In this document: positions 4,511-25,071 of the stretch, in pieces | How the letters are laid out: every line of letters begins with the position of its first letter | Position numbering within the stretch: the stretch's first letter is position 1 | Sequence record: NZ_CP058956.1 | DNA: 43,513 nt | Reading direction: 5' to 3' (one strand) | Origin: a plasmid | The notes under the pieces: generated by a model | Database searches by the model: none | Told to the model about the DNA's origin: nothing | Seen by the model: only the letters and a program-made list of their open reading frames with translations | Made by a program: the position numbers and the translations under genes

Positions 4511-5862
4511 GAGAGTGTCAATAATTTTGTGTACTTTTGAAAATCCTTCTTTGTATGAAATGCTTACTTAAATAAACATGGAATCCAAGGTATCCTTGCT
4601 TCCTCGAAATCCACGATGTGCTCGTTCTTCGAACTTGTCATTGTATTCTAGAATTTGAGTTGTCACGAATCGTTGAAGGGCATCCTCATTTGGAAACTGC
4701 TCCTTCTGGCGAATTTTCTTCTTCAACTTTTTGTTGAAAGCTTCAATCAAATTTGTTGAGTAAATTGATGCCCGAATGCTTGGCGGAAATTCGTAGAAGG
4801 TGAATAAGTTACTTAACTTACCCAATTTTCGCATCTGGTTGCTATATTTGCTTTTCCATTTCAAAATGAAGTTATCTAAAGCTTGTTTTGCTTCTTCAAG
4901 TGATTCAGATTGGCGAATTTCTTTAAATTCGCTCATCAAATCTCGCATATCGCTTTTTCGCACATGTGATGTGAGGTTACGAAGCACATGGACTAAGCAG
5001 CGCTGAAACTTAGCGGTTGGATAAATTTCTGCAATCACATTTTCGAGCCCAATAAAACCATCGGCGATGAATAACTGAACCTGTTCAATTCCTCGATTGC
5101 GTAAACTTTCAAGTAGTTCACGCCATGCTTCACCATTTTCGTTTGGTGCTACCGAGAAGTCTAAGACTTCTTTACCGCCGTCACTACGAATTCCAATCGC
5201 GATATTAACCGCTTCGCGCTCAACAGTTCCGCGCTTGAGCGGAATATAAGTAGCGTCTAAGAACACGCAAACATACTGTGAGTGCTTAAAGGTCCTGTTA
5301 TGAAACTCTTCAACCAAGTTGCCAACTTGCTTAGTAATATTTGAAACGGTAGTTGGTGAATAGTAATCGCCATACATGCGCTCAACTAAATCAGCTATTT
5401 CACGAGTCGTGATGCCTTTGGAATACATTTTAATGATCATCGATTCCAGAGTATCTGTCCGCCGTGAATATGGTTCGAATAAAGCGTTACGAAATTTATT
5501 CTTACGATCGCGCGGAACCGTAATATTGATTGGTCCAAATTCAGTATCGATGGTTCGCTGATACGATCCGTTTCTGGCGTTGTCCCCATGAGCGGAACTG
5601 TCGTTACGCTCATAGGGTTGGTAGCCTAAGACTGCCGACAATTCTTCTTGAAGTAATGTATTGACGGTTTGTTCTAACTGATTGCGAAAGACATCTTTTA
5701 ATGATGTTTTAGAGTCAGAAGATAGCGCGTCAAGAATTTCTTTGTTAAACTGGTTCATAGGGAAAGCCTCCGTTTTGATTGTGTTTAGCGATTTAATCAT
5801 ACGGGGAAGGCTTTCCCTTTTCAATTTAATTTAGAAATTTACACAAAATATTTTACACTCCC
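4511..5862 (-). mobile_element. IS256-family insertion sequence, copy A (1352 bp)
   Basis: Imperfect terminal inverted repeats 'GAGAGTGTCAATAATTTTGTGTAC' and 'GGGAGTGTAAAATATTTTGTGTAA'. Flanked by the 8-bp direct repeat 'tagaattt' at 4503-4510 and 5863-5870. The 8-bp duplication is the size expected for the IS256 family. Confidence 0.9.
4568..5824 (-). CDS. IS256-family (Mutator-type) DDE transposase
   Basis: 418 aa, identical to the ORF at 23758-25014. Typical IS256 transposase organisation. Confidence 0.9.
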   Translation of the reverse strand: MKRESLPRMIKSLNTIKTEAFPMNQFNKEILDALSSDSKTSLKDVFRNQLEQTVNTLLQEELSAVLGYQPYERNDSSAHGDNARNGSYQRTIDTEFGPINITVPRDRKNKFRNALFEPYSRRTDTLESMIIKMYSKGITTREIADLVERMYGDYYSPTTVSNITKQVGNLVEEFHNRTFKHSQYVCVFLDATYIPLKRGTVEREAVNIAIGIRSDGGKEVLDFSVAPNENGEAWRELLESLRNRGIEQVQLFIADGFIGLENVIAEIYPTAKFQRCLVHVLRNLTSHVRKSDMRDLMSEFKEIRQSESLEEAKQALDNFILKWKSKYSNQMRKLGKLSNLFTFYEFPPSIRASIYSTNLIEAFNKKLKKKIRQKEQFPNEDALQRFVTTQILEYNDKFEERAHRGFRGSKDTLDSMFI

Positions 5863-6979: not shown

Positions 6980-7160
6980 GAAAAGCTGTCAAGACAGGCA
7001 GGCGTTTGCCGGAGATACCTAAGGAAATGAGAGACACTATGCTCTATTAGATTGCTCTTCATGCTATGTTAAGTACGAACTCAGTGCAATATAATTAGCT
7101 ACACTGGGATTCAGAATTATCATGAGTATCACTGGAACAACTAAGAACTTATAACTTTAA

Positions 7161-7200
7161 AAGCAGACACACCAAAACCCTTGGCGCGTCTGCTTTTCAT
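7161..7200. terminator. bidirectional hairpin terminator
   Basis: Stem 'aagcagac' / 'gtctgctt' with A/T runs on both sides. It abuts the integrase stop on the minus strand. Confidence 0.5.
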
Positions 7201-7794
7201 TTACCCAAAATCAATCTTATCCAGCATATGCTCACGGCTGACCTGATCAAGCCCCAGGTATGCCAAGGTCATGGCTTCGCTGGAATGGTTCAGCAGCTTC
7301 ATGACCAGACCAATGTTGTAGTTGGACTGGACGTACACGCGATAGGCTCCAGTCTTGCGCATCGTGTGCGTGCCCAGGTAGTTGATATCCAACAGATCCC
7401 CGACCTTGGCCATCACGTTATAGAACTGGCGCTCGTCAATATGCTTCTGCGGCCGCGTGGTAGAAGGAAACAGCCATTCCGTTGTACCCTCATAGCTGTT
7501 GCGCTTAAGCCACTGCTGATACATCACCAGGTCCATCATCACCGGCTTGAGGTAGAGCGTGTTCCGCTTGCCGGTCTTCTTGTCCTTGATGAACGCGTGC
7601 TGCTTAATGGCGCCATAGTCATCGAAAACGTCCTCCTGCTTAAGCCGCAGTACGTCACTGACCCGCAGCAGAGTTGCCTTGCCGACTTGAAAGATGGTGT
7701 AGTTGCGCCGGCCAGACTTGAAGTTGTTCAACAGCGTGTCCTGTACCTGCTTGAGTACCTCATCATCCTTGATTGGCAGTACGATTTGCCGCAT
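7201..7794 (-). CDS. short tyrosine recombinase (phage-integrase-family catalytic domain only)
   Basis: 197 aa. 'GTHTMRKTGAYRVY' supplies the H-x-x-R ... Y catalytic residues, and an upstream Arg ('LLRVSDVLRL') fits box I. There is no N-terminal core-binding domain. Confidence 0.85.
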   Translation of the reverse strand: MRQIVLPIKDDEVLKQVQDTLLNNFKSGRRNYTIFQVGKATLLRVSDVLRLKQEDVFDDYGAIKQHAFIKDKKTGKRNTLYLKPVMMDLVMYQQWLKRNSYEGTTEWLFPSTTRPQKHIDERQFYNVMAKVGDLLDINYLGTHTMRKTGAYRVYVQSNYNIGLVMKLLNHSSEAMTLAYLGLDQVSREHMLDKIDFG

Positions 7795-7798
7795 TTAA

Positions 7799-7975
7799 TC
7801 ACCCCTGCTTTCCCGTCAAACGGAGGCTTTCATCAATCAGTCTCATTACGTTATCATCGTCCAGCTGATCGTCAAGTACGACTGAAATCCAGTACTTATG
7901 ATTCATATGGTAGGCCGGAAAAACGGACTGACCGTCAACTGGCAGCGTGTTGCTTTTCAGATTTATGATATCAAC
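7799..7975 (-). pseudogene. 3'-terminal remnant of an MmcQ/YjbR-family gene
   Basis: Open frame with no start codon. Translation: '...LPVDGQSVFPAYHMNHKYWISVVLDDQLDDDNVMRLIDESLRLTGKQG*'. It matches the conserved C-terminal 'HMNKKHWITV..LDG....ELIDESY' signature of YjbR proteins. The N-terminal part is absent. Confidence 0.4.
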
Positions 7976-8067
7976 GTTTCCGGCGTTAACATACGGCCAT
8001 GCCTCTTATCATCCAGCAGCTTCTGGTATTCTTCATACTGCTTATTTGTAATCTTTTTTATATTCAC

Positions 8068-9429
8068 CTAATTATAAATCACGATCTTATCATGGGTGTA
8101 TTCGGCAAAATTACGGTCCACTTGATCAAATACTTCCTGCATCTCGTTATAAATTTTGCCACTGACATAATCCGCCCGCATTTCTGGTTTTTCAAGCAGT
8201 ACCCATTTCATCTGTGAGTAAACATATTTCGCAAATGCCAACCACTGCGGGTAATTAATCGACATTGGGTTTTTAGAAAAATATACCTTTCCGGCATTAG
8301 CTGCTGTAGCAAGAGAATGACTTATAAAAAGCATTGTAGCCAACTTCGGATGCGTTTCTCGTTTTAACGATACAGGTATAGAGTCTTTTACAGAATGCCC
8401 TTCATTAATTCTTTTTAAGGCATATCCCATCCGTGTAATAACCTCTATCAACATCACCGGCACGGACATTGAGCAGAAATGAATAAAATCATATCCTTCA
8501 TAGTACATTCCTTGAACGATTTCAGCGATGGTCTGATCATAGTCACCAATTTTCCCGAACTGAAGCAGATTAAGCAGACTCATAAACGGAGCTGGTAACC
8601 CCATTGATGTAGTGATATCAGATTTAAAATGTATGATTTGTTTTGCAAGAGCCAGAAAGGTATCGCTCTCCCTTCTGTCCGCGTAGTTTTCCATCACTTG
8701 ACATACAACTTTCCCATTTTTATCGATTGTAGTCATTGTTCCGTTCAGAATATCTGACACACCGAATATGAAACCAAGAACCGGATCATGACCAAGTTGT
8801 AATAACCGATGATAATATGCTGACAGTCCCTCAACATAGATTCTCGTATGACGATTGTCCTGTGCATCAAAAGGAACTTTGCTTATCTTGGAATTGGCTA
8901 GCTTCTGCATTTCCTCTTCGGGATATTTTTTATCAAAATAATCCCTGACAAAATCTGATAATGGTCCGGCTTTCAGACCATCCGGCGTTTTCTTCGGAAT
9001 GCCAACGAGTAAAATATCAACCGCTGAACCAACCAAACCGGCAAGAATGGAAATCGCATAGTCAACCTTGTCCATGTGATAGATCTGTTTGAAATCTCTG
9101 TTTAACAGACGAATGGCTTCTTCATTTTGCCTCAGCTCATCTTCTGTAAATAGCGCTCGGATATCACATTTCCCTGTTATATATTGATTTGCCTCTGCGC
9201 ATAGTTCATCCCAATTCGGCACTACTATTACTTCGTTATTACGTTTATTTGCTACCTCATTCTTTGAAGGCAAATCATATCCAAGACTTTTAAGAAGCAC
9301 TTCACTGCGTCGGATTTCATCATCCGTTGCAGACGAATCAGGAAAATGAATGTTTTTTAACTGCTGATCATGATACATGATCACCTTTGCCATTTGTTGA
9401 TCAGTGTCATTATTTTTATTCCTGTTCAT
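8068..9429 (-). CDS. hypothetical 453-aa soluble protein (no recognisable P-loop, DDE or HNH motif; one R-x4-H 'RINEGH' HEPN-like motif)
   Basis: Long AT-rich ORF. It is co-oriented with, and overlaps by 14 nt, the upstream small ORF. Third gene of the cassette. Confidence 0.6.
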   Translation of the reverse strand: MNRNKNNDTDQQMAKVIMYHDQQLKNIHFPDSSATDDEIRRSEVLLKSLGYDLPSKNEVANKRNNEVIVVPNWDELCAEANQYITGKCDIRALFTEDELRQNEEAIRLLNRDFKQIYHMDKVDYAISILAGLVGSAVDILLVGIPKKTPDGLKAGPLSDFVRDYFDKKYPEEEMQKLANSKISKVPFDAQDNRHTRIYVEGLSAYYHRLLQLGHDPVLGFIFGVSDILNGTMTTIDKNGKVVCQVMENYADRRESDTFLALAKQIIHFKSDITTSMGLPAPFMSLLNLLQFGKIGDYDQTIAEIVQGMYYEGYDFIHFCSMSVPVMLIEVITRMGYALKRINEGHSVKDSIPVSLKRETHPKLATMLFISHSLATAANAGKVYFSKNPMSINYPQWLAFAKYVYSQMKWVLLEKPEMRADYVSGKIYNEMQEVFDQVDRNFAEYTHDKIVIYN

Positions 9430-9646
9430 CTGATCCCTCGCTCTTTTCTTTCTCAGCCTCTAGTGCTTTAACCAATACCTCGTTTATTGTCCCAAGATGC
9501 TCAGCCTTCTCGGTTTGATTTGACAGATCTTTTATCTCAGCATCTTGTTTCTGGATTGCTTCCTGCTCTAACCGCTCTTCCTCGCGATGGCGTTTCTCTT
9601 CCTTTTTACGTTTGAATAGCTGAACTAAACCCAAATACAGTGCCAA
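9416..9646 (-). CDS. hypothetical small coiled-coil protein (hydrophobic N-terminus, then a K/E-rich helix)
   Basis: 76 codons with no in-frame ATG; it would need a TTG start. Its end overlaps the start of the 453-aa gene. Confidence 0.3.
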   Translation of the reverse strand: MALYLGLVQLFKRKKEEKRHREEERLEQEAIQKQDAEIKDLSNQTEKAEHLGTINEVLVKALEAEKEKSEGSDEQE

Positions 9647-9774
9647 CAGCTGCTGCCGCCCAAGATATTATCGTTCCCCATTCATTTCGTGGCGGTTCTG
9701 GATAATTAGAGTTGTATTATCGGCTGGTGTGTTCTTATAATCATCATCTTCGTTATTGTTCACTGCGATCGTTC

Positions 9775-10326
9775 TCAAGCAACGCCCAGGTCATTTTTCA
9801 AATCAATAATTGCCTGTTGTAGCAATATATTGAGACTCTGCAAGTAATCCATTCTTTCCTTATCAGCGTCTGCTTCCTTTTTGAGAGCCTCAATAATTGC
9901 TTCATGTTTTGCTAGGGCCTCTTTATACAATCTTTCTTTTTCCTGCTGGAGCTGCTTATTTTTCAGATGGCTGGCTAAGCCCACACCACCTGCAGCGAGA
10001 ATAGCAACTGGTGCGGCTAATACAAAAACGCCGGCAACCATTCCTCCACCGATAAGCGAACCTGCTGTTGCAAGTCCTGATGTAATCCCAGCTGCAGACA
10101 AACCAACTACTCCCAATCCATACAGCGCTGCAAAAGAGCCAACACCACCGATTCCGGCACCTAATGCACCCGCCAAAACCTCCGGTATAGAGCTTTCTTT
10201 AATGGTTCTGTTTTTATCATTCAGTGCCGCCGCAGCTTCATTAATTACATTCACAACGGGCTGAAGTGAATCCACACTCTGAAACACCATATCTTTCTTT
10301 TTTATGCCCTTAGTATCCGAATTCAT
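9775..10326 (-). CDS. glycine-zipper membrane protein with a C-terminal coiled coil
   Basis: 183 aa. The central roughly 70-aa 'GALGAGIGGVGSF...AAGGVGLASHL' segment is a GxxxG/A repeat transmembrane region. The C-terminal 'QQEKERLYKEALAKHEAIIEALKKEADADKER' segment is predicted coiled coil. Confidence 0.6.
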   Translation of the reverse strand: MNSDTKGIKKKDMVFQSVDSLQPVVNVINEAAAALNDKNRTIKESSIPEVLAGALGAGIGGVGSFAALYGLGVVGLSAAGITSGLATAGSLIGGGMVAGVFVLAAPVAILAAGGVGLASHLKNKQLQQEKERLYKEALAKHEAIIEALKKEADADKERMDYLQSLNILLQQAIIDLKNDLGVA

Positions 10327-10438
10327 TTTTTAACTCCATTCTTTCCTGAATCTGTTATTGCCTTTAAGAGCCACGAACTTGCTACAGCCACTCCAGTAAG
10401 AGCCGATAATACAGTAGAACTGAAGATACCAGCTGTTT

Positions 10439-10989
10439 TTATCCATTCATCAGACACTTCTTTTTGAAGAACCTGTAGTTGTTTGCATAGTTGCTTTTCC
10501 AGTTGTCATCAACGATACCGGTTTTCAGAATATTGAGGAACTGCTCCTTGTCGCTGTCAGTAGCAACCTCTGAATCAATCTTTAAGGCTGACTTATTCGG
10601 CTCGTCGAACTCATCCGTTTTCCAGATGCACTGTTCGATGAGCTTGCTCGTCTTGAGTGCTTTGTCGTTTTTCATGCTGCCGTACTTGTCGTAGAATGCG
10701 CGGAGTAGGAGCATGAGCGTCGTTAATGTTGCTGACCATCGATGATTTCCTTTTTGCCGTCCTCGTTCTTGAATGTGACTATCGGGCCGAGGAAATCCTC
10801 GTCAGTGTCGCTGTCGAACTTGTCGCAGTCGTTGTCCGGGAACGCAAAGAGAAACAGGTCGTCCTATAATGTCTGGCATTCCTTTTCTCCCCAGGCGTAT
10901 GGCCTCTGATAGTCCGGTATCGGAAAATCCGTGTTCTTTTCAGTGAAGAGATTCTTTATACTCTTCTAATTAATATTTAGCTTTGACAT
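10439..10989 (-). pseudogene. decayed N-terminal fragment of a DUF262 (GmrSD/ParB-nuclease-like) gene
   Basis: ATG at 10989 with RBS 'ggagaaag'. Translation 'MSKLNIN*KSIKNLFTEKNTDFPIPDYQRPYAWGEKECQTL*DDLF...KKEIIDGQQH*' carries two in-frame TAG codons. A 1-nt frameshift follows, with the continuation '(R)LTTLMLLLRAFYD...' in the next frame (this is the 91-aa ORF at 10439-10714). The DUF262 signatures 'DYQRPY' and 'DGQQRLTTL' are both present. The gene is truncated after about 180 codons. Confidence 0.7.
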
Positions 10990-11567
10990 TCGCTTCTTTC
11001 TCCATCTCAGCGTATTATTATGATTTCTTCCCGTATTCCGCTGTATAAGTATCCTTAGTTTTCTGAAAGCCAAATTCGCTCATCAGCTCGGGGATGAATT
11101 TTTGGTTTTTAAATACATCGTCAATCAGTCTGGTCATCCTGTCACTCCACTCAATTTTTCGAAAAATCGATAGGTATCATTTTTGCTATATAGAAATAAA
11201 TAACATGTCTTAATTTTATCATAAAAACGGATGCCTTTAAACCACCTTTTGCGAAGTGTTATTTGATAGAAATAACACTTTCTATCATGATCATGGCCGA
11301 TCAAGCAGCCCAAATCTCCGAAATGCAAAAATCGCCTCTCAGACGCACTGAAACTTAAATAGATGGGTAAGTTATCCATTACGTTTCGTCTGAGAGGCAA
11401 TTATCGAAATGCACTAAAAAATCGAGCCAGTTAGCCGCTGACTCGATTATGGTATAATATTTTTGTCCAAGAACATTGGCGGTGCTTCGCTTTTCGAAGG
11501 GAGCGATGCCAATGAAGGAGTTGAAAAAACACACGACGCTTCCCATCATTATGAAAGGGATCCATAA

Positions 11568-11732
11568 GTGTCAAACCGACATCAAGATGGCGCCGACTTA
11601 AAAGGTCTTGCCGCTGTTCTTCACGAACTGCATGGCTTACCGATCGGCGTTCAATATGCAGCTTTGGCCACGGTCGTAATCATTGTGATTGCTTCCCTCA
11701 TAGCCGGTTGCTACATGGTCAGTCATTTCTGA
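11568..11732 (+). CDS. small single-TM membrane peptide (54 aa, GTG start), paralog of the ORF at 14245
   Basis: RBS 'aaaggga' lies 7 nt upstream of GTG. Translation: VSNRHQDGADLKGLAAVLHELHGLPIGVQYAALATVVIIVIASLIAGCYMVSHF. Preceded by a 31-aa leader ORF (11510-11605). A promoter-like extended -10 'tggtataat' sits at about 11451-11459, and a terminator follows downstream. Confidence 0.4.
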   Translation: MSNRHQDGADLKGLAAVLHELHGLPIGVQYAALATVVIIVIASLIAGCYMVSHF

Positions 11733-11834
11733 CCAAAAAGAAAAACCATCTTTATGAGTGGCAGCTCTAAGATGGTGTTGTACATTCTTAATTTAGTTTA
11801 AAGTGTAAGCACTGTCGATTTTCAAGGACATTCG

Positions 11835-11869
11835 GGCTAACGTGTTCCCTCACGTTAGCCTTTTTGTTT
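11835..11869 (+). terminator. rho-independent terminator
   Basis: Perfect 10-bp stem 'ggctaacgtg' / 'cacgttagcc', loop 'ttccct', then 'tttttgttt'. Confidence 0.65.
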
Positions 11870-11910
11870 ACGCCATAATTATAGCTGATTTCAATCGTCA
11901 TTGCAATTTG

Positions 11911-11938
11911 AAAACGCCTTGCCAGACCAGGCAAGGCG
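11911..11938 (-). terminator. rho-independent terminator of the AAA+ ATPase gene
   Basis: 9-bp stem 'cgccttgcc' / 'ggcaaggcg' with a TTTT run on the minus strand, about 150 nt downstream of the 12087 stop. Confidence 0.55.
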
Positions 11939-12086
11939 CTATATGAATGGTAAGTGCTAGTTATATAAGGATTGAATAATAGCTAGCAGACAATTTAAGC
12001 GAGGGGAAACCATACCCTCAAGAATGATTATACTCTAGTCTAAAGCGTTTTTAAATTAGCCGGTCTGCAAAAAAATGTCATTGCAG

Positions 12087-13835
12087 CTAAGCGAGTTCGG
12101 CATTGGCCAGATCAATGGCTTTAATGATCGAGAGGCCCTCATCAAAGTCATTTTCGGCAGCCAGACGATTAGCTTGCGCGGTTAAGGCATCCTCAAAGAA
12201 GTTTCTGACCGCGCGACCATTGGCAAAGTCGTCTGGTCGGTTGGCACAGGTCGTCTGAAAAAGATTCATGGCGTAGTCGCGTGCTTCGTCAGTCAGCTCT
12301 ACCCCATACTGGGCGCACATCTTGTCTAACATTTCCAACAGTTCAGCAGGTTCATAGTCCTCAAACTCCAAGTACTTGTTGAAGCGTGACTTCAAGCCGG
12401 GATTGGATGCCAGGAAGGTGGCCATCTGATTTGGATAGCCGGCAACGATCACGATAAAGTCATCACGGTGATCCTCCATGGCCTTCAAAAGCGTATCAAT
12501 GGCTTCCTGACCAAAGTCGCTGCCGCTTCCCGATGCGAGCGTGTAGGCCTCATCGATAAACAGAATCCCGCCCAGTGCCTGATCAATCACGTTCTTGGTC
12601 TTGATCGCTGTCTGCCCGACATAACCGCCAACCAGTCCGGACCGATCGACTTCAACCAGCTGACCCTTGGAGAGAATCCCCATTTTATGGTAGATTTTAG
12701 CCAACAAACGCGCAACGGTGGTCTTGCCGGTCCCTGGATTGCCATAGAATACCAGGTGCAGCGACATGGCAGGCTGCTTGATTCCGCGCTGTTCCCGAAT
12801 CTTGCGGACCTTGAGCAGGTTAATCAATGAGTTAACATCTTTCTTAACGGAATCGAGACCGACCAGATCATTCAGCTGAGCCAGAAGTTCTTCTAAGGTA
12901 GCGTCATCCTCTTCAGCAGTAGCAGTTTTCGTGATGCTATTATCATCAGCCGTCTGTTCTTCATCAGCCATCGTTGAAGATTCTACGCTATCCGTACCAT
13001 CATCGGTTGATTCTGCCGGTTCAGCCATTGGATTTTCTAACCAGAAGATGAACGAACCAGCGCCATTGCCATCAAGAGAGCCTGCAAAAACACTTTGTTG
13101 ATCATCGCTGACAGTAAGCAGACAAGGCTCATCGGAAAGCTTCAGATTCTCCACGCTGCCTGGATTATCCTCCAAGTCGAATTCCATTGCTTCCAAAAGA
13201 TCACCATAGTCAGACGCGCTTGGACCATCGACCAAGTAAAGCGAGGATGAATCATTATGAAGCAGGTACAGCTGTTTTGAAGTGATTTCTTCATATTCGG
13301 GATGATTTTGCATAAATCGTTGGTAAAAATTCAAGTTAATGTTGAAGATACCTTGCGCGCTGCGTTTGATGCTATCGGCACCATCGGCATTTCCACTTAG
13401 ATGACAGATGGTACAGATATTATGAATCAGCCGCAGAACCAAGTCATTGAAATCGATATCTTCAAAATCGGCATCCCCCATTTCGGCACGCCCCAGCTCC
13501 CATTTCAAAATGCTGTGATATATATTACCTGATGTTTTCCAATCTCCTCGAAAGAACAAAGCCTGCGCGAACTGCAGATTGATCAGCATTGAAATGTCAT
13601 CATGATTGCTGTCCAATAACACTTCAATCAGCTTCTCCAGCATCAGTCGCTTATTGACTAGAATCTGGTTAATTTCTTCATCCAGAAACAGGTATTCTAC
13701 CGGACTGTAAATGTAGTCAGACAGGAACCCAATCAGATTTCCCATGGCCACGGTATCACCTGGATTAAACTCGTAGTCATCCAGCAGCTCTATATATTTA
13801 TCCTTATACTCTCCCAATGGATATATCTCTGACAT
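12087..13835 (-). CDS. AAA+ ATPase of the CbbX/SpoVK type with a long acidic N-terminal domain
   Basis: 582 aa. Walker A 'GNPGTGKTT', Walker B 'ILFIDEAY', and a CbbX/SpoVK-like arrangement 'LHLVFYGNPGTGKTTVARLLAKIYHKMGIL'. The N-terminal roughly 300 aa is unassigned. Confidence 0.85.
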   Translation of the reverse strand: MSEIYPLGEYKDKYIELLDDYEFNPGDTVAMGNLIGFLSDYIYSPVEYLFLDEEINQILVNKRLMLEKLIEVLLDSNHDDISMLINLQFAQALFFRGDWKTSGNIYHSILKWELGRAEMGDADFEDIDFNDLVLRLIHNICTICHLSGNADGADSIKRSAQGIFNINLNFYQRFMQNHPEYEEITSKQLYLLHNDSSSLYLVDGPSASDYGDLLEAMEFDLEDNPGSVENLKLSDEPCLLTVSDDQQSVFAGSLDGNGAGSFIFWLENPMAEPAESTDDGTDSVESSTMADEEQTADDNSITKTATAEEDDATLEELLAQLNDLVGLDSVKKDVNSLINLLKVRKIREQRGIKQPAMSLHLVFYGNPGTGKTTVARLLAKIYHKMGILSKGQLVEVDRSGLVGGYVGQTAIKTKNVIDQALGGILFIDEAYTLASGSGSDFGQEAIDTLLKAMEDHRDDFIVIVAGYPNQMATFLASNPGLKSRFNKYLEFEDYEPAELLEMLDKMCAQYGVELTDEARDYAMNLFQTTCANRPDDFANGRAVRNFFEDALTAQANRLAAENDFDEGLSIIKAIDLANAELA

Positions 13836-18619: not shown

Positions 18620-19087
18620 ATGACAAAACAGCAAGGCCACATACGTTTTGGGGTGACTGCAAGAAGAAACCATCCAATTAAAATCAGATATTTCAAACGT
18701 CTAAATGAAACGTTTCCAGATAATCGAAACCATATTAATGCAAAAGGAGACTTCTTCGTATATGCACAATTAAGGGCTAATAGCAACGGATCGAAGTATT
18801 CGGTTGTATTCATTTCCAAAGGATGGAGCATATCCGTTAGAGTCTATAGTCCTTTTTTTCAAAAAGAAGATCTCCTCAAAATTCCACACATTTTTGTAAG
18901 CAAGTCAAATTCAGAGCATGGTTATGTTTCACTATGCCTATATAAAAATAATTTTGGCCATGCTGAATTCAGATTTGGGGACAGACTGGATACTTCGATC
19001 ATAGCCTGGACAAAAGAATGGCTTTATTTTTACGAACTATTTTTAATTACTGGGAGATGGTATGGAAATGGTGAGCATCCACAATAA
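18620..19087 (+). CDS. hypothetical protein (AT-rich cassette, gene 1)
   Basis: ATG at 18620 with RBS 'aaggagg' 6 nt upstream. The ORF track shows an alternative upstream start at 18593. About 155 aa, with no motif I can assign. Confidence 0.45.
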   Translation: MTKQQGHIRFGVTARRNHPIKIRYFKRLNETFPDNRNHINAKGDFFVYAQLRANSNGSKYSVVFISKGWSISVRVYSPFFQKEDLLKIPHIFVSKSNSEHGYVSLCLYKNNFGHAEFRFGDRLDTSIIAWTKEWLYFYELFLITGRWYGNGEHPQ

Positions 19088-19919
19088 CAAAAATAATCTA
19101 AGAGAGGTAAAGACTTATAGATTTATAGCTCTCCAAACTAAACCTCTCATAGCAACAATTTCATTAGCATCCACGATTTACTATTTTTTTCGAAACGTTT
19201 CAAAAGTCACTCTCAACACTCTTGGTATTGACTATAAGCTATCAATACATCCCTGGTTTATTAGGCTCTTTATTTCCCTAATCCTATCCTATTACGCAAT
19301 GCTCATTATCTTTAAATTCATCGGAAAAGAAAGATTATTGCTCCCAAACACGTATTACTTAGTACCTTCATTTATCATTAAGCTTGCAGCTGCGATAGGT
19401 TATTGTCATAAGGGGAGCGCGGCCAATATTCCAACTTGGCAATATATTGATTACCTATATAATAATTGGGCCAGATTATCTATTGACGTTCCAGAAGTAA
19501 TAGATGCCAGTAAAGATACTTCAATCAAAGTATCAGAAATAAGGAGTGATGCTGAGGATGACAAAATCCTTTCAATTATTATTTCCGATACCTATCCTAT
19601 AAATTTGAATACATTACCTTCAACTATCAAAAACCATAGCTATGTCGTCTTGCAAACTATGATCAATGGCAAAGTTAACCTAGGAAGACGAGCCTATAAT
19701 CCAGAATTAGTCAAAATTTTCATAGATCAAGTAAATAAATCTAAGGAAAATGGCATTACAACAATTCAACTGTTGTCTAACACCAATCCTAAACACATTA
19801 AGGAAATAATGAGGGAAGCCTTTTGCAATGCTGGACGCAGTCATATAAAACACCTTGTAGTATATGAAAATCCTAGAGAGAATAATTATAATTTTACAAA
19901 ACGCCACAATATTTTCTAA
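19062..19919 (+). CDS. hypothetical membrane protein (2 N-terminal TM helices plus a soluble domain; AT-rich cassette, gene 2)
   Basis: 285 aa. RBS 'gggagatgg' lies upstream. Its start overlaps the end of the previous ORF by 26 nt. Confidence 0.5.
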   Translation: MEMVSIHNNKNNLREVKTYRFIALQTKPLIATISLASTIYYFFRNVSKVTLNTLGIDYKLSIHPWFIRLFISLILSYYAMLIIFKFIGKERLLLPNTYYLVPSFIIKLAAAIGYCHKGSAANIPTWQYIDYLYNNWARLSIDVPEVIDASKDTSIKVSEIRSDAEDDKILSIIISDTYPINLNTLPSTIKNHSYVVLQTMINGKVNLGRRAYNPELVKIFIDQVNKSKENGITTIQLLSNTNPKHIKEIMREAFCNAGRSHIKHLVVYENPRENNYNFTKRHNIF

Positions 19920-23719: not shown

Positions 23720-25071
23720 GGGAGTGTAAAATATTTTGTGTAAATTTCTAAATTAAATTGAAAAGGGAAAGCCTTCCCCGTATGATTAAATCGCTAAACA
23801 CAATCAAAACGGAGGCTTTCCCTATGAACCAGTTTAACAAAGAAATTCTTGACGCGCTATCTTCTGACTCTAAAACATCATTAAAAGATGTCTTTCGCAA
23901 TCAGTTAGAACAAACCGTCAATACATTACTTCAAGAAGAATTGTCGGCAGTCTTAGGCTACCAACCCTATGAGCGTAACGACAGTTCCGCTCATGGGGAC
24001 AACGCCAGAAACGGATCGTATCAGCGAACCATCGATACTGAATTTGGACCAATCAATATTACGGTTCCGCGCGATCGTAAGAATAAATTTCGTAACGCTT
24101 TATTCGAACCATATTCACGGCGGACAGATACTCTGGAATCGATGATCATTAAAATGTATTCCAAAGGCATCACGACTCGTGAAATAGCTGATTTAGTTGA
24201 GCGCATGTATGGCGATTACTATTCACCAACTACCGTTTCAAATATTACTAAGCAAGTTGGCAACTTGGTTGAAGAGTTTCATAACAGGACCTTTAAGCAC
24301 TCACAGTATGTTTGCGTGTTCTTAGACGCTACTTATATTCCGCTCAAGCGCGGAACTGTTGAGCGCGAAGCGGTTAATATCGCGATTGGAATTCGTAGTG
24401 ACGGCGGTAAAGAAGTCTTAGACTTCTCGGTAGCACCAAACGAAAATGGTGAAGCATGGCGTGAACTACTTGAAAGTTTACGCAATCGAGGAATTGAACA
24501 GGTTCAGTTATTCATCGCCGATGGTTTTATTGGGCTCGAAAATGTGATTGCAGAAATTTATCCAACCGCTAAGTTTCAGCGCTGCTTAGTCCATGTGCTT
24601 CGTAACCTCACATCACATGTGCGAAAAAGCGATATGCGAGATTTGATGAGCGAATTTAAAGAAATTCGCCAATCTGAATCACTTGAAGAAGCAAAACAAG
24701 CTTTAGATAACTTCATTTTGAAATGGAAAAGCAAATATAGCAACCAGATGCGAAAATTGGGTAAGTTAAGTAACTTATTCACCTTCTACGAATTTCCGCC
24801 AAGCATTCGGGCATCAATTTACTCAACAAATTTGATTGAAGCTTTCAACAAAAAGTTGAAGAAGAAAATTCGCCAGAAGGAGCAGTTTCCAAATGAGGAT
24901 GCCCTTCAACGATTCGTGACAACTCAAATTCTAGAATACAATGACAAGTTCGAAGAACGAGCACATCGTGGATTTCGAGGAAGCAAGGATACCTTGGATT
25001 CCATGTTTATTTAAGTAAGCATTTCATACAAAGAAGGATTTTCAAAAGTACACAAAATTATTGACACTCTC
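23720..25071 (+). mobile_element. IS256-family insertion sequence, copy B (1352 bp), identical to copy A and inverted relative to it
   Basis: Same IRs as copy A. Flanked by the 8-bp direct repeat 'ccaaaaat' at 23712-23719 and 25072-25079. Confidence 0.9.
23758..25014 (+). CDS. IS256-family transposase
   Basis: 418 aa, identical to the ORF at 4568-5824. Confidence 0.9.
   Translation: MKRESLPRMIKSLNTIKTEAFPMNQFNKEILDALSSDSKTSLKDVFRNQLEQTVNTLLQEELSAVLGYQPYERNDSSAHGDNARNGSYQRTIDTEFGPINITVPRDRKNKFRNALFEPYSRRTDTLESMIIKMYSKGITTREIADLVERMYGDYYSPTTVSNITKQVGNLVEEFHNRTFKHSQYVCVFLDATYIPLKRGTVEREAVNIAIGIRSDGGKEVLDFSVAPNENGEAWRELLESLRNRGIEQVQLFIADGFIGLENVIAEIYPTAKFQRCLVHVLRNLTSHVRKSDMRDLMSEFKEIRQSESLEEAKQALDNFILKWKSKYSNQMRKLGKLSNLFTFYEFPPSIRASIYSTNLIEAFNKKLKKKIRQKEQFPNEDALQRFVTTQILEYNDKFEERAHRGFRGSKDTLDSMFI

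Follow-up and report, generated by a model that had tools for sequence, protein, structure and literature searches.

Bunzi, one of the 21 systems described by Millman et al. 2022 (bioRxiv 10.1101/2022.05.11.491447), is a two-gene system that was identified as anti-phage. In that account the first protein, BnzA, has a TerB domain, two transmembrane helices and a lipid-interacting domain, and 'membrane surveillance' was hypothesised as its role; a targeted literature search found no mechanistic study of the system. PADLOC holds profiles for BnzA and BnzB (PDLC03833 and PDLC03834), and the canonical pair on the Lactococcus plasmid pLLUC029A scores 421 bits for BnzA (549 aa) and 508.7 bits for BnzB (511 aa). 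Here we describe a relative of this pair in sequence record NZ_CP058956.1, analysed as a single stretch of 43,513 nucleotides that we refer to as the window. The window is plasmid-like, with a RepA_N initiator, several insertion sequence (IS) elements and phosphotransferase system (PTS) genes, and one of its products, a protein of 453 aa, matches at 100% identity a hypothetical protein encoded on a plasmid in Limosilactobacillus mucosae. The gene for this protein (gD) and that for a 183-aa membrane protein (gB) are the two intact members of a minus-strand block (Table 1) that, by DNA comparison, is a recombination-bounded piece of a conserved operon on an L. mucosae plasmid. We favour, with moderate confidence, the explanation that the locus is a degraded four-gene operon (gA to gD, in order of transcription) whose intact gB-gD core is a minimal, TerB-less relative of Bunzi and would act in membrane-linked abortive-infection defence.

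The tie to Bunzi is made through gD. A sequence-only reading of this DNA, prepared from the letters and a list of open reading frames (ORFs), had matched no named system to it; the PADLOC BnzB profile now assigns the 453-aa protein to the BnzB family (218.6 bits, with residues 7-428 aligned to profile positions 52-486 of 504), and the cassette is accordingly a Bunzi variant. BLASTP against the canonical lactococcal BnzB gives 31% identity over 304 aa (E 3e-27), and a representative search places 935 clusters at 50% identity in the family at E below 1e-3. The products of gB, the gC remnant and gD all gave nothing significant in Pfam, NCBIfam or PHROGs. Among 59 diverse homologues eight positions of gD are invariant (D188, H207, H214, G223, H267, D271, P281 and M308) and about 30 more are nearly so, in motifs that include HRxxSLGHDP and GYDFxHF. 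An AlphaFold2 model of the protein is confident (predicted local distance difference test, pLDDT, 92.5; predicted template modelling score 0.84); Foldseek searches with it yielded no match above noise in the PDB (best E 0.23, template modelling score below 0.2) and none of meaning in BFVD (best E 0.054), and the 59-member sequence profile found only coiled-coil noise in the PDB. Residues 122-146 form a strongly hydrophobic helix (Kyte-Doolittle 2.27), and because of it the earlier label 'soluble' is unsafe for this protein.

Its partner gB is the better conserved of the two: across Bacillota gB is 73-89% identical, as compared with 56-68% for gD. The 72 residues of its membrane core (49-120) are 49% Gly/Ala, and the tail that follows is charged and heptad-like. 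This core had been called a classic GxxxG/A glycine zipper, a label that the motif count does not support, with 10 such motifs against a mean of 8.6 (standard deviation 1.9) when the same residues are shuffled; no Pfam glycine-zipper family, no TerB and no other Pfam entry matches gB at E up to 1. Packing of small-residue helices is nonetheless plausible from the sequence, because the core is so rich in Gly and Ala and is nearly invariant across homologues. Within it, a stretch of 40 residues (SAAGITSGLA.AG...GGGMVAG..VLAAP) is almost unchanged even in Enterobacteriaceae. Shine-Dalgarno sequences are kept for both genes, that of gB being a GGAG 9 nt 5' of its ATG. Between the window and its relative L012 the ratio of nonsynonymous to synonymous substitution rates is 0.049 for gB and 0.096 for gD, values that mark both as real genes on which purifying selection has acted; the two are taken to function as a pair.

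Comparison with canonical Bunzi shows likeness in layout and difference in the first protein. Both have a two-gene core with a membrane-protein gene immediately 5' of a BnzB-family gene, and gB is at most a counterpart of the transmembrane core of BnzA, a glycine-rich segment at about positions 300-414. On the PADLOC BnzA model it matches positions 307-406 of 544 only, weakly (E 7.5e-4), and the orthologue from IncHI2 plasmids falls on the same segment (about 301-414; hidden Markov model E 1.6e-6), as does an hhalign placement of the gB profile (E 2.2e-3); the three signals are weak but agree in position. BnzA is about 545 aa long, with a TerB-containing N-terminal region and a C-terminal extension, whereas gB has 183 aa and neither of these; the DNA upstream of gB encodes the tail of a gene for a helix-turn-helix (HTH) and transmembrane protein and no BnzA N-terminus. 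Pfam at E up to 0.01 fails to detect TerB even in the canonical lactococcal BnzA, so the absence of TerB from gB rests mainly on length and on profile coverage. gD is likewise shorter than BnzB (453 aa versus 504-511 aa), and some short-form loci, including the ancestor of the window copy, add two genes, gA and gC, that are not described for Bunzi. With the match spanning 18% of the model, a detection rule that demands a complete BnzA would probably pass over this locus.

To what extent gB and gD belong together was judged from other species. In a scan of one genome per species, using a 16-sequence alignment, the patterns searched for occurred in 305 of the 185,579 species genomes, and 80 loci from other species (L018-L097) were retrieved for counts of gene order. 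Most are from Bacillota (the Streptococcus mitis group, Lachnospiraceae, Erysipelotrichaceae and Enterococcus), with a few from Atopobiaceae and Coriobacteriia. gB lies immediately 5' of gD in 78 of the 80. In 50 of these the two genes abut with no third gene, and in 28 a small ORF of the gC type lies between them; gA tends to occur together with gC, having been detected at 14 of these 28 loci as against two of the 50 that lack gC (Fisher p 3e-6). Of the two exceptions, L040 has only 396 nt of contig 5' of gD, too little for gB to be visible, and in L075 gB is absent and the gD ORF is shortened to 428 aa. A different partner for gD was also considered in the record of Streptococcus phage phi-SsuFJNP8_rum from S. 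suis (MN270261; L098 4367-5004), which is outside the 80-locus set, and was ruled out: a Tet(M) element has inserted in gB there, leaving a chimeric 71-aa ORF that keeps the last 20 or so gB residues directly 5' of an intact gD homologue.

Natural fusions join the same two parts. In P0286 (619 aa) residues 10-167 resemble gB residues 24-180 (30% identity, E 2e-12) and are continuous with a BnzB-like domain, and two further single-chain proteins, P0277 (622 aa) and P0375 (691 aa), likewise begin with a glycine-rich region, gB-like or PDC-M09A-like, that is followed by a BnzB-like domain. The counterpart of the membrane core is much less hydrophobic in P0286 and P0277. Because gB and gD adjoin in 78 of 80 loci, most of them without a third gene, and because a fusion protein exists, the conserved core is, as far as sequence and gene order go, a two-gene gB-gD module. 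Of the three genes that the sequence-only reading proposed to look for together in other genomes, gB and gD are indeed syntenic, and gC accompanies them in just 28 of the 78 loci.

Three other systems invite comparison. On the IncHI2 plasmid pEC-IMP (NC_012555; L099 3394-6143) the pair WP_000340139/WP_012695445 shares the short two-gene architecture: a 165-aa 'membrane protein' is 47% identical to gB (E 1e-29), and a 462-aa protein scores 178.6 bits against BnzB and is about 31% identical to gD. It differs in being from Gammaproteobacteria, in having neither gA nor gC, and in its neighbours, a gene for a trypsin-like serine protease just on its 5' side and an HTH/HipA toxin-antitoxin pair on its 3' side. 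The IncHI2 hosts are Enterobacter, Salmonella, Klebsiella, Citrobacter and E. coli, and the genes are annotated only as membrane or hypothetical proteins. The PADLOC candidate PDC-M09A is reached through the 691-aa fusion P0375, in which a PDC-M09A-like glycine-rich membrane region (E 4.2e-10) precedes the BnzB-like domain, and through a faint match of the gC remnant (E 0.029); neither gB nor gD matches the PDC-M09 models, however, and PDC-M09 is itself only a candidate system. A lead to protease-effector systems (Pepco/EACC1, PMC12642450) was dropped when its 'TerB' match proved to be the word 'terbium'.

The third comparison is one of function. RexA and RexB of phage lambda are a prophage-borne pair of a membrane protein and a larger partner that depolarises the membrane on superinfection. 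RexB is a four-transmembrane channel protein, unlike gB, which would be a Gly/Ala-rich hairpin. The Rex pair offers an analogy for gB-gD and is not a relative; no relationship in sequence or structure came to light, no search aimed at it having been made. On that analogy gB may oligomerise in the cytoplasmic membrane through its small-residue-rich helices, with gD docked on it by way of the cytoplasmic helical tail of gB and the hydrophobic helix of gD. A perturbation associated with infection would switch the complex on, after which either gB would permeabilise the membrane or the invariant His/Asp cluster of gD would carry out a reaction; either could abort the infection, as in the Rex case. 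The pore-forming role that the sequence-only reading had in mind for gB is likewise putative. Where gA is present it may be a membrane-tethered repressor of the operon, and gC, where present, may modulate the assembly of gB. A more specific version, which we put forward only tentatively, takes gB-gD as the minimal core of Bunzi and TerB as an optional sensor; immunity would then come from a near-invariant gB and a gD of new fold, with an Asp/His site (D188, H207, H214, H267 and D271) that is catalytic or binds metal at the membrane.

The state of the L. mucosae locus is best seen against its intact relatives. The closest outside L. mucosae are the metagenome contigs L012 and L013 (gD 89% identical to the window copy), followed by Lachnospiraceae contigs (68%); all have a tightly packed four-gene operon, gA-gB-gC-gD, in which gB is 183-187 aa, gC 115-116 aa and gD 453-454 aa. 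Their gA products (158-169 aa) have an XRE-type HTH and a C-terminal hydrophobic tail, and that of L012 (158 aa) matches Pfam HTH_3 (E 6e-9). Intact gC has a single hydrophobic helix and a charged helix, and its similarity to gB (53% identity over 86 aa, E 2e-25) shows it to be a shortened paralogue of that gene. Hydrophobic segments are predicted in all four products.

In the window only the tail of gA is left, its HTH domain, start codon and native promoter being gone. It forms a 44-aa ORF (10323-10457; a tblastn match joins gA residues 115-155 of L001 to window positions 10457-10341) whose stop overlaps the gB start (ATGA), as in the intact relatives. gC is broken by two indels, a -1 deletion at about 9712 and a +1 insertion at 9629, which throw its transmembrane helix into the wrong reading frame, and by a TAA that stands in frame at 9670-9668. 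The lesions are common to every copy from L. mucosae, and the L007/L011 lineage adds a CAG-to-TAG change within the downstream 76-aa ORF; gC is on this evidence a pseudogene in L. mucosae. Directly after gD there is a stub of a fifth gene whose translation, VNIKKITNKQYEEYQKLLDDKRHGRMLTPETLIS, matches the 78-aa g5 of L012, MKKITNKQYEEYQKLLDDKMHGRILTPDGL..., with the homology limited to the first 30 or so codons and the ATG changed to ATA. The sequence-only reading had presented the block as a cassette of three genes, and the ORFs on which it relied are there: three in the same orientation on the minus strand, of 183 aa (9775-10326), 76 aa (9416-9646, TTG start) and 453 aa (8068-9429), the last two overlapping by 14 nt. 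The unit, however, is the remnant of a four-gene operon with a two-gene conserved core, and the second of the three is the 3' remnant of a frameshifted 115-codon gC.

Table 1. Coordinates of the operon fragment, its genes and the adjoining pseudogene in the window
Feature	Coordinates	Strand	Basis or remarks
Bunzi-related operon fragment (four/five genes in origin)	7971..10464	-	Bounded by junctions on both sides
Fifth-gene stub, 34 aa	7963..8067	-	Directly after gD; g5 of L012 is 78 aa
gD, intact, 453 aa	8068..9429	-	Mostly helical; PADLOC BnzB, E 4.7e-65
gC pseudogene, 115-codon frame from GTG 9763	9416..9763	-	DNA alignment to intact L012/L013 copies
gB, intact, 183 aa	9775..10326	-	Short N-terminal helix, hydrophobic core 49-120, helical tail 121-183
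gA remnant, last 47 codons (C-terminal transmembrane tail)	10323..10464	-	Aligns only to L012 1576-1717
GmrSD_N/DUF262 restriction-like pseudogene, cut at block junction	10465..10960	-	PF03235, E 1.7e-22

The edges of the block were defined by comparison with L012, a relative in an unrelated context. A single blastn alignment of 2495 nt (86% nucleotide identity) joins window 7971-10464 to L012 1576-4069 and stops exactly at both ends; it opens 47 codons before the gA stop and closes about 97 nt past the gD stop, inside the fifth gene. Comparison with the L. mucosae variant L007, which departs from the window at 7979, also marks the downstream edge as a junction. On the other side, a decayed PF03235 gene is truncated where the block begins, as had been proposed, with the junction placed by DNA homology at about 10464 rather than at 10439; its conceptual translation, joined across an in-frame stop and a frameshift, covers profile positions 3-152 of 199. 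That the block is a discrete segment is likewise borne out by these exact limits, but a clean insertion splitting one DUF262 gene is ruled out. The sister L. mucosae plasmid L007 carries an extra 1.84 kb straight after the block (L007 9452-11293), of which the window keeps a short remnant only; it contains fragments of Lon_C, GmrSD_N and MmeI methyltransferase genes together with a complete YjbR gene. Because this downstream DUF262 piece is a second N-terminal fragment (profile 1-37), the region is a patchwork of pieces of decayed defence genes, and the L007 stretch looks like a defence-gene graveyard. The description of the block as conspicuously AT-rich was overstated: its GC content is 0.409, as compared with 0.443 for the whole window and 0.418 for the adjoining 10465-12086, and 16% of 2.5-kb windows equal or exceed it in AT content. 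A megablast search of PLSDB with window 7000-12000 gave no match, and an Rfam scan of the window found nothing.

Elsewhere the module is found in a variety of settings. Plasmid records carrying it number 489, mostly conjugative and of the IncHI2 type, and it is present in 35 IMG/VR contigs, lying near the ends of these and of phage contigs. In an S. suis prophage it is at the end, after the holin, the endolysin and two serine integrases, and in other cases it lies beside large serine recombinases and genes of integrative and conjugative elements (ICEs). A survey of 131 neighbour genes at 26 loci returned recombinases, transposases, type I restriction-modification genes, GmrSD and NERD, together with ordinary metabolic genes; these neighbours fit mobile accessory or defence cargo. 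A gene for tRNA (uracil-5) methyltransferase recurs next to the module in unrelated Bacillota (L101-L104; six of the 131 neighbour genes), which suggests a preferred chromosomal hotspot of insertion. The general idea of the sequence-only reading, a phage-defence or abortive-infection cassette, gains support from the BnzB family, the gB-gD synteny and the mobile contexts, even though several of its specifics were wrong.

A number of observations weigh against Bunzi-like defence as an account of the module and of this copy. A canonical Bunzi system from Lactococcus failed to protect against the lactococcal phages on which it was tried (PMC11381338). The homology of gB to BnzA is weak: BLASTP against the canonical protein is not significant (E 0.22, its best alignment being on the same segment), hhalign places the gB profile at BnzA 299-335 with E 2.2e-3 and a probability of 13%, and the matching segment is compositionally biased. 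A model of the fusion P0286 has pLDDT values of 47-62 over its gB-like part and is uninformative on how gB and gD might pack. Some chromosomal loci have neither mobile-element nor defence neighbours, and the neighbour survey has no background control. For the window copy in particular, the native promoter was lost together with the 5' part of gA, and a promoter search upstream of gB gave nothing above chance; in the L007/L011 lineage gB has six nonsynonymous and two synonymous changes, including G70E in the membrane core; and the L. mucosae copies are 99.4-99.8% identical, so that intact ORFs say little about ongoing selection.

These last points bear on an alternative that we regard as a real possibility, somewhat short of probable: that the L. 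mucosae copy is a dead relic, a non-functional recombination leftover among decaying defence genes, in which gB and gD are intact only for want of time. The copies differ by just 0.2-0.6%, so intact ORFs are expected by chance; gC is frameshifted, with a further stop in L007; and the surroundings hold GmrSD_N, MmeI methyltransferase and Lon_C fragments and IS elements. The two genes that survive intact are, however, exactly the universal core, which is present without gC in 50 of 78 loci elsewhere, and both retain their Shine-Dalgarno sequences. All 17 full-length L. mucosae gD variants among those listed are 451-453 aa, changes in gD within the species amount to two synonymous and one nonsynonymous, the gB of the window's lineage is the ancestral sequence, and transcription could read through from upstream. 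Differences between copies follow a gradient along the block, which a recombination tract could also explain. Whether the window copy is still expressed and active appears to us about evenly balanced.

The remaining alternatives concern the module as a whole. One, which we consider unlikely, is a module for maintenance of or competition between mobile elements, either as a toxin-antitoxin-like pair with gB as the toxin and gD restraining it, or through exclusion of rival plasmids, ICEs or prophages. The consistent presence of the module on prophage ends, on ICE-like elements with serine recombinases and on IncHI2 plasmids beside a HipA toxin-antitoxin pair would suit such a role, as would a two-gene operon with translational coupling and a small, highly conserved membrane protein. 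Yet Bunzi, the sole experimentally studied relative, was identified as anti-phage (bioRxiv 10.1101/2022.05.11.491447), a 453-aa protein with invariant His and Asp residues would be atypical as an antitoxin, and mobile-element genes cannot be recognised in the vicinity of several chromosomal copies; roles in defence and in addiction can, moreover, coexist. Very improbable, in our view, is a housekeeping or envelope-stress membrane complex, TerB- or Psp-like in what it does and with no part in conflict with phages or mobile elements. Membrane association is predicted for every product and some loci lie among ordinary metabolic genes, but the distribution is patchy (the 305 species genomes noted above), horizontal transfer has crossed phyla and replicon types, decay and disruption are frequent, and no NCBIfam or Pfam housekeeping family is assigned. 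Finally, the suggestion that gD is a HEPN-type RNase toxin, drawn from its single R-x4-H match (RINEGH, residues 340-345), is effectively refuted by the poor conservation of R340 (23 of 59 homologues) and H345 (six of 59), and neither a HEPN family in Pfam, NCBIfam or PADLOC nor, above noise, the structure of any PDB chain, HEPN proteins included, matches gD.

Several other features of the window were recorded. A 582-aa AAA+ protein (12087-13835, minus strand) is of the SpoVK/CbbX/EccA type (TIGR02881, E 1.5e-88, below the cut-off); its N-terminal region is long and acidic, it matches PADLOC IetA weakly, and several L. mucosae contigs (L007 and L009) have its gene in linkage with the block. 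A 285-aa protein (19062-19919, plus strand) has the SUa-2TM effector domain (PF18179, SMODS- and ubiquitin-system-associated 2TM effector; E 3e-20); its gene sits by itself where the window is richest in AT (GC 0.31-0.35), and the protein may be another orphan defence effector. Two inverted ORFs of equal length (418 aa, TTG starts) lie at 4568-5824 (minus) and 23758-25014 (plus); the first looks by its translation like an IS256/mutator-type transposase, and if both are copies of one IS they could delimit a composite element with the block inside it. An ORF of 246 aa (7228-7968, plus) is antisense to the whole of a 197-aa tyrosine-integrase gene (7201-7794, GC 0.527) and is most likely a GC-rich shadow ORF and not a gene.

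The short, TerB-less two-gene form is widespread and is undescribed as such in the literature searched. As a natural variant that pairs a probable counterpart of the BnzA membrane core with BnzB, together with the fusions, it narrows the search for the essential machinery of Bunzi; it argues that TerB is dispensable for core activity and offers a two-protein system with targets for point mutation. Relatives are carried by prophages, ICE-like elements and clinically important IncHI2 plasmids with no defence label, the records examined naming only hypothetical or membrane proteins, and if gB-gD is indeed the minimal core of Bunzi, the prophages and ICEs of Gram-positive bacteria and the IncHI2 resistance plasmids would hold a widespread defence module that has gone unannotated. 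The L. mucosae plasmid copy, a degraded remnant amid decayed defence genes, illustrates the rapid turnover of defence cargo in lactobacillus plasmids.

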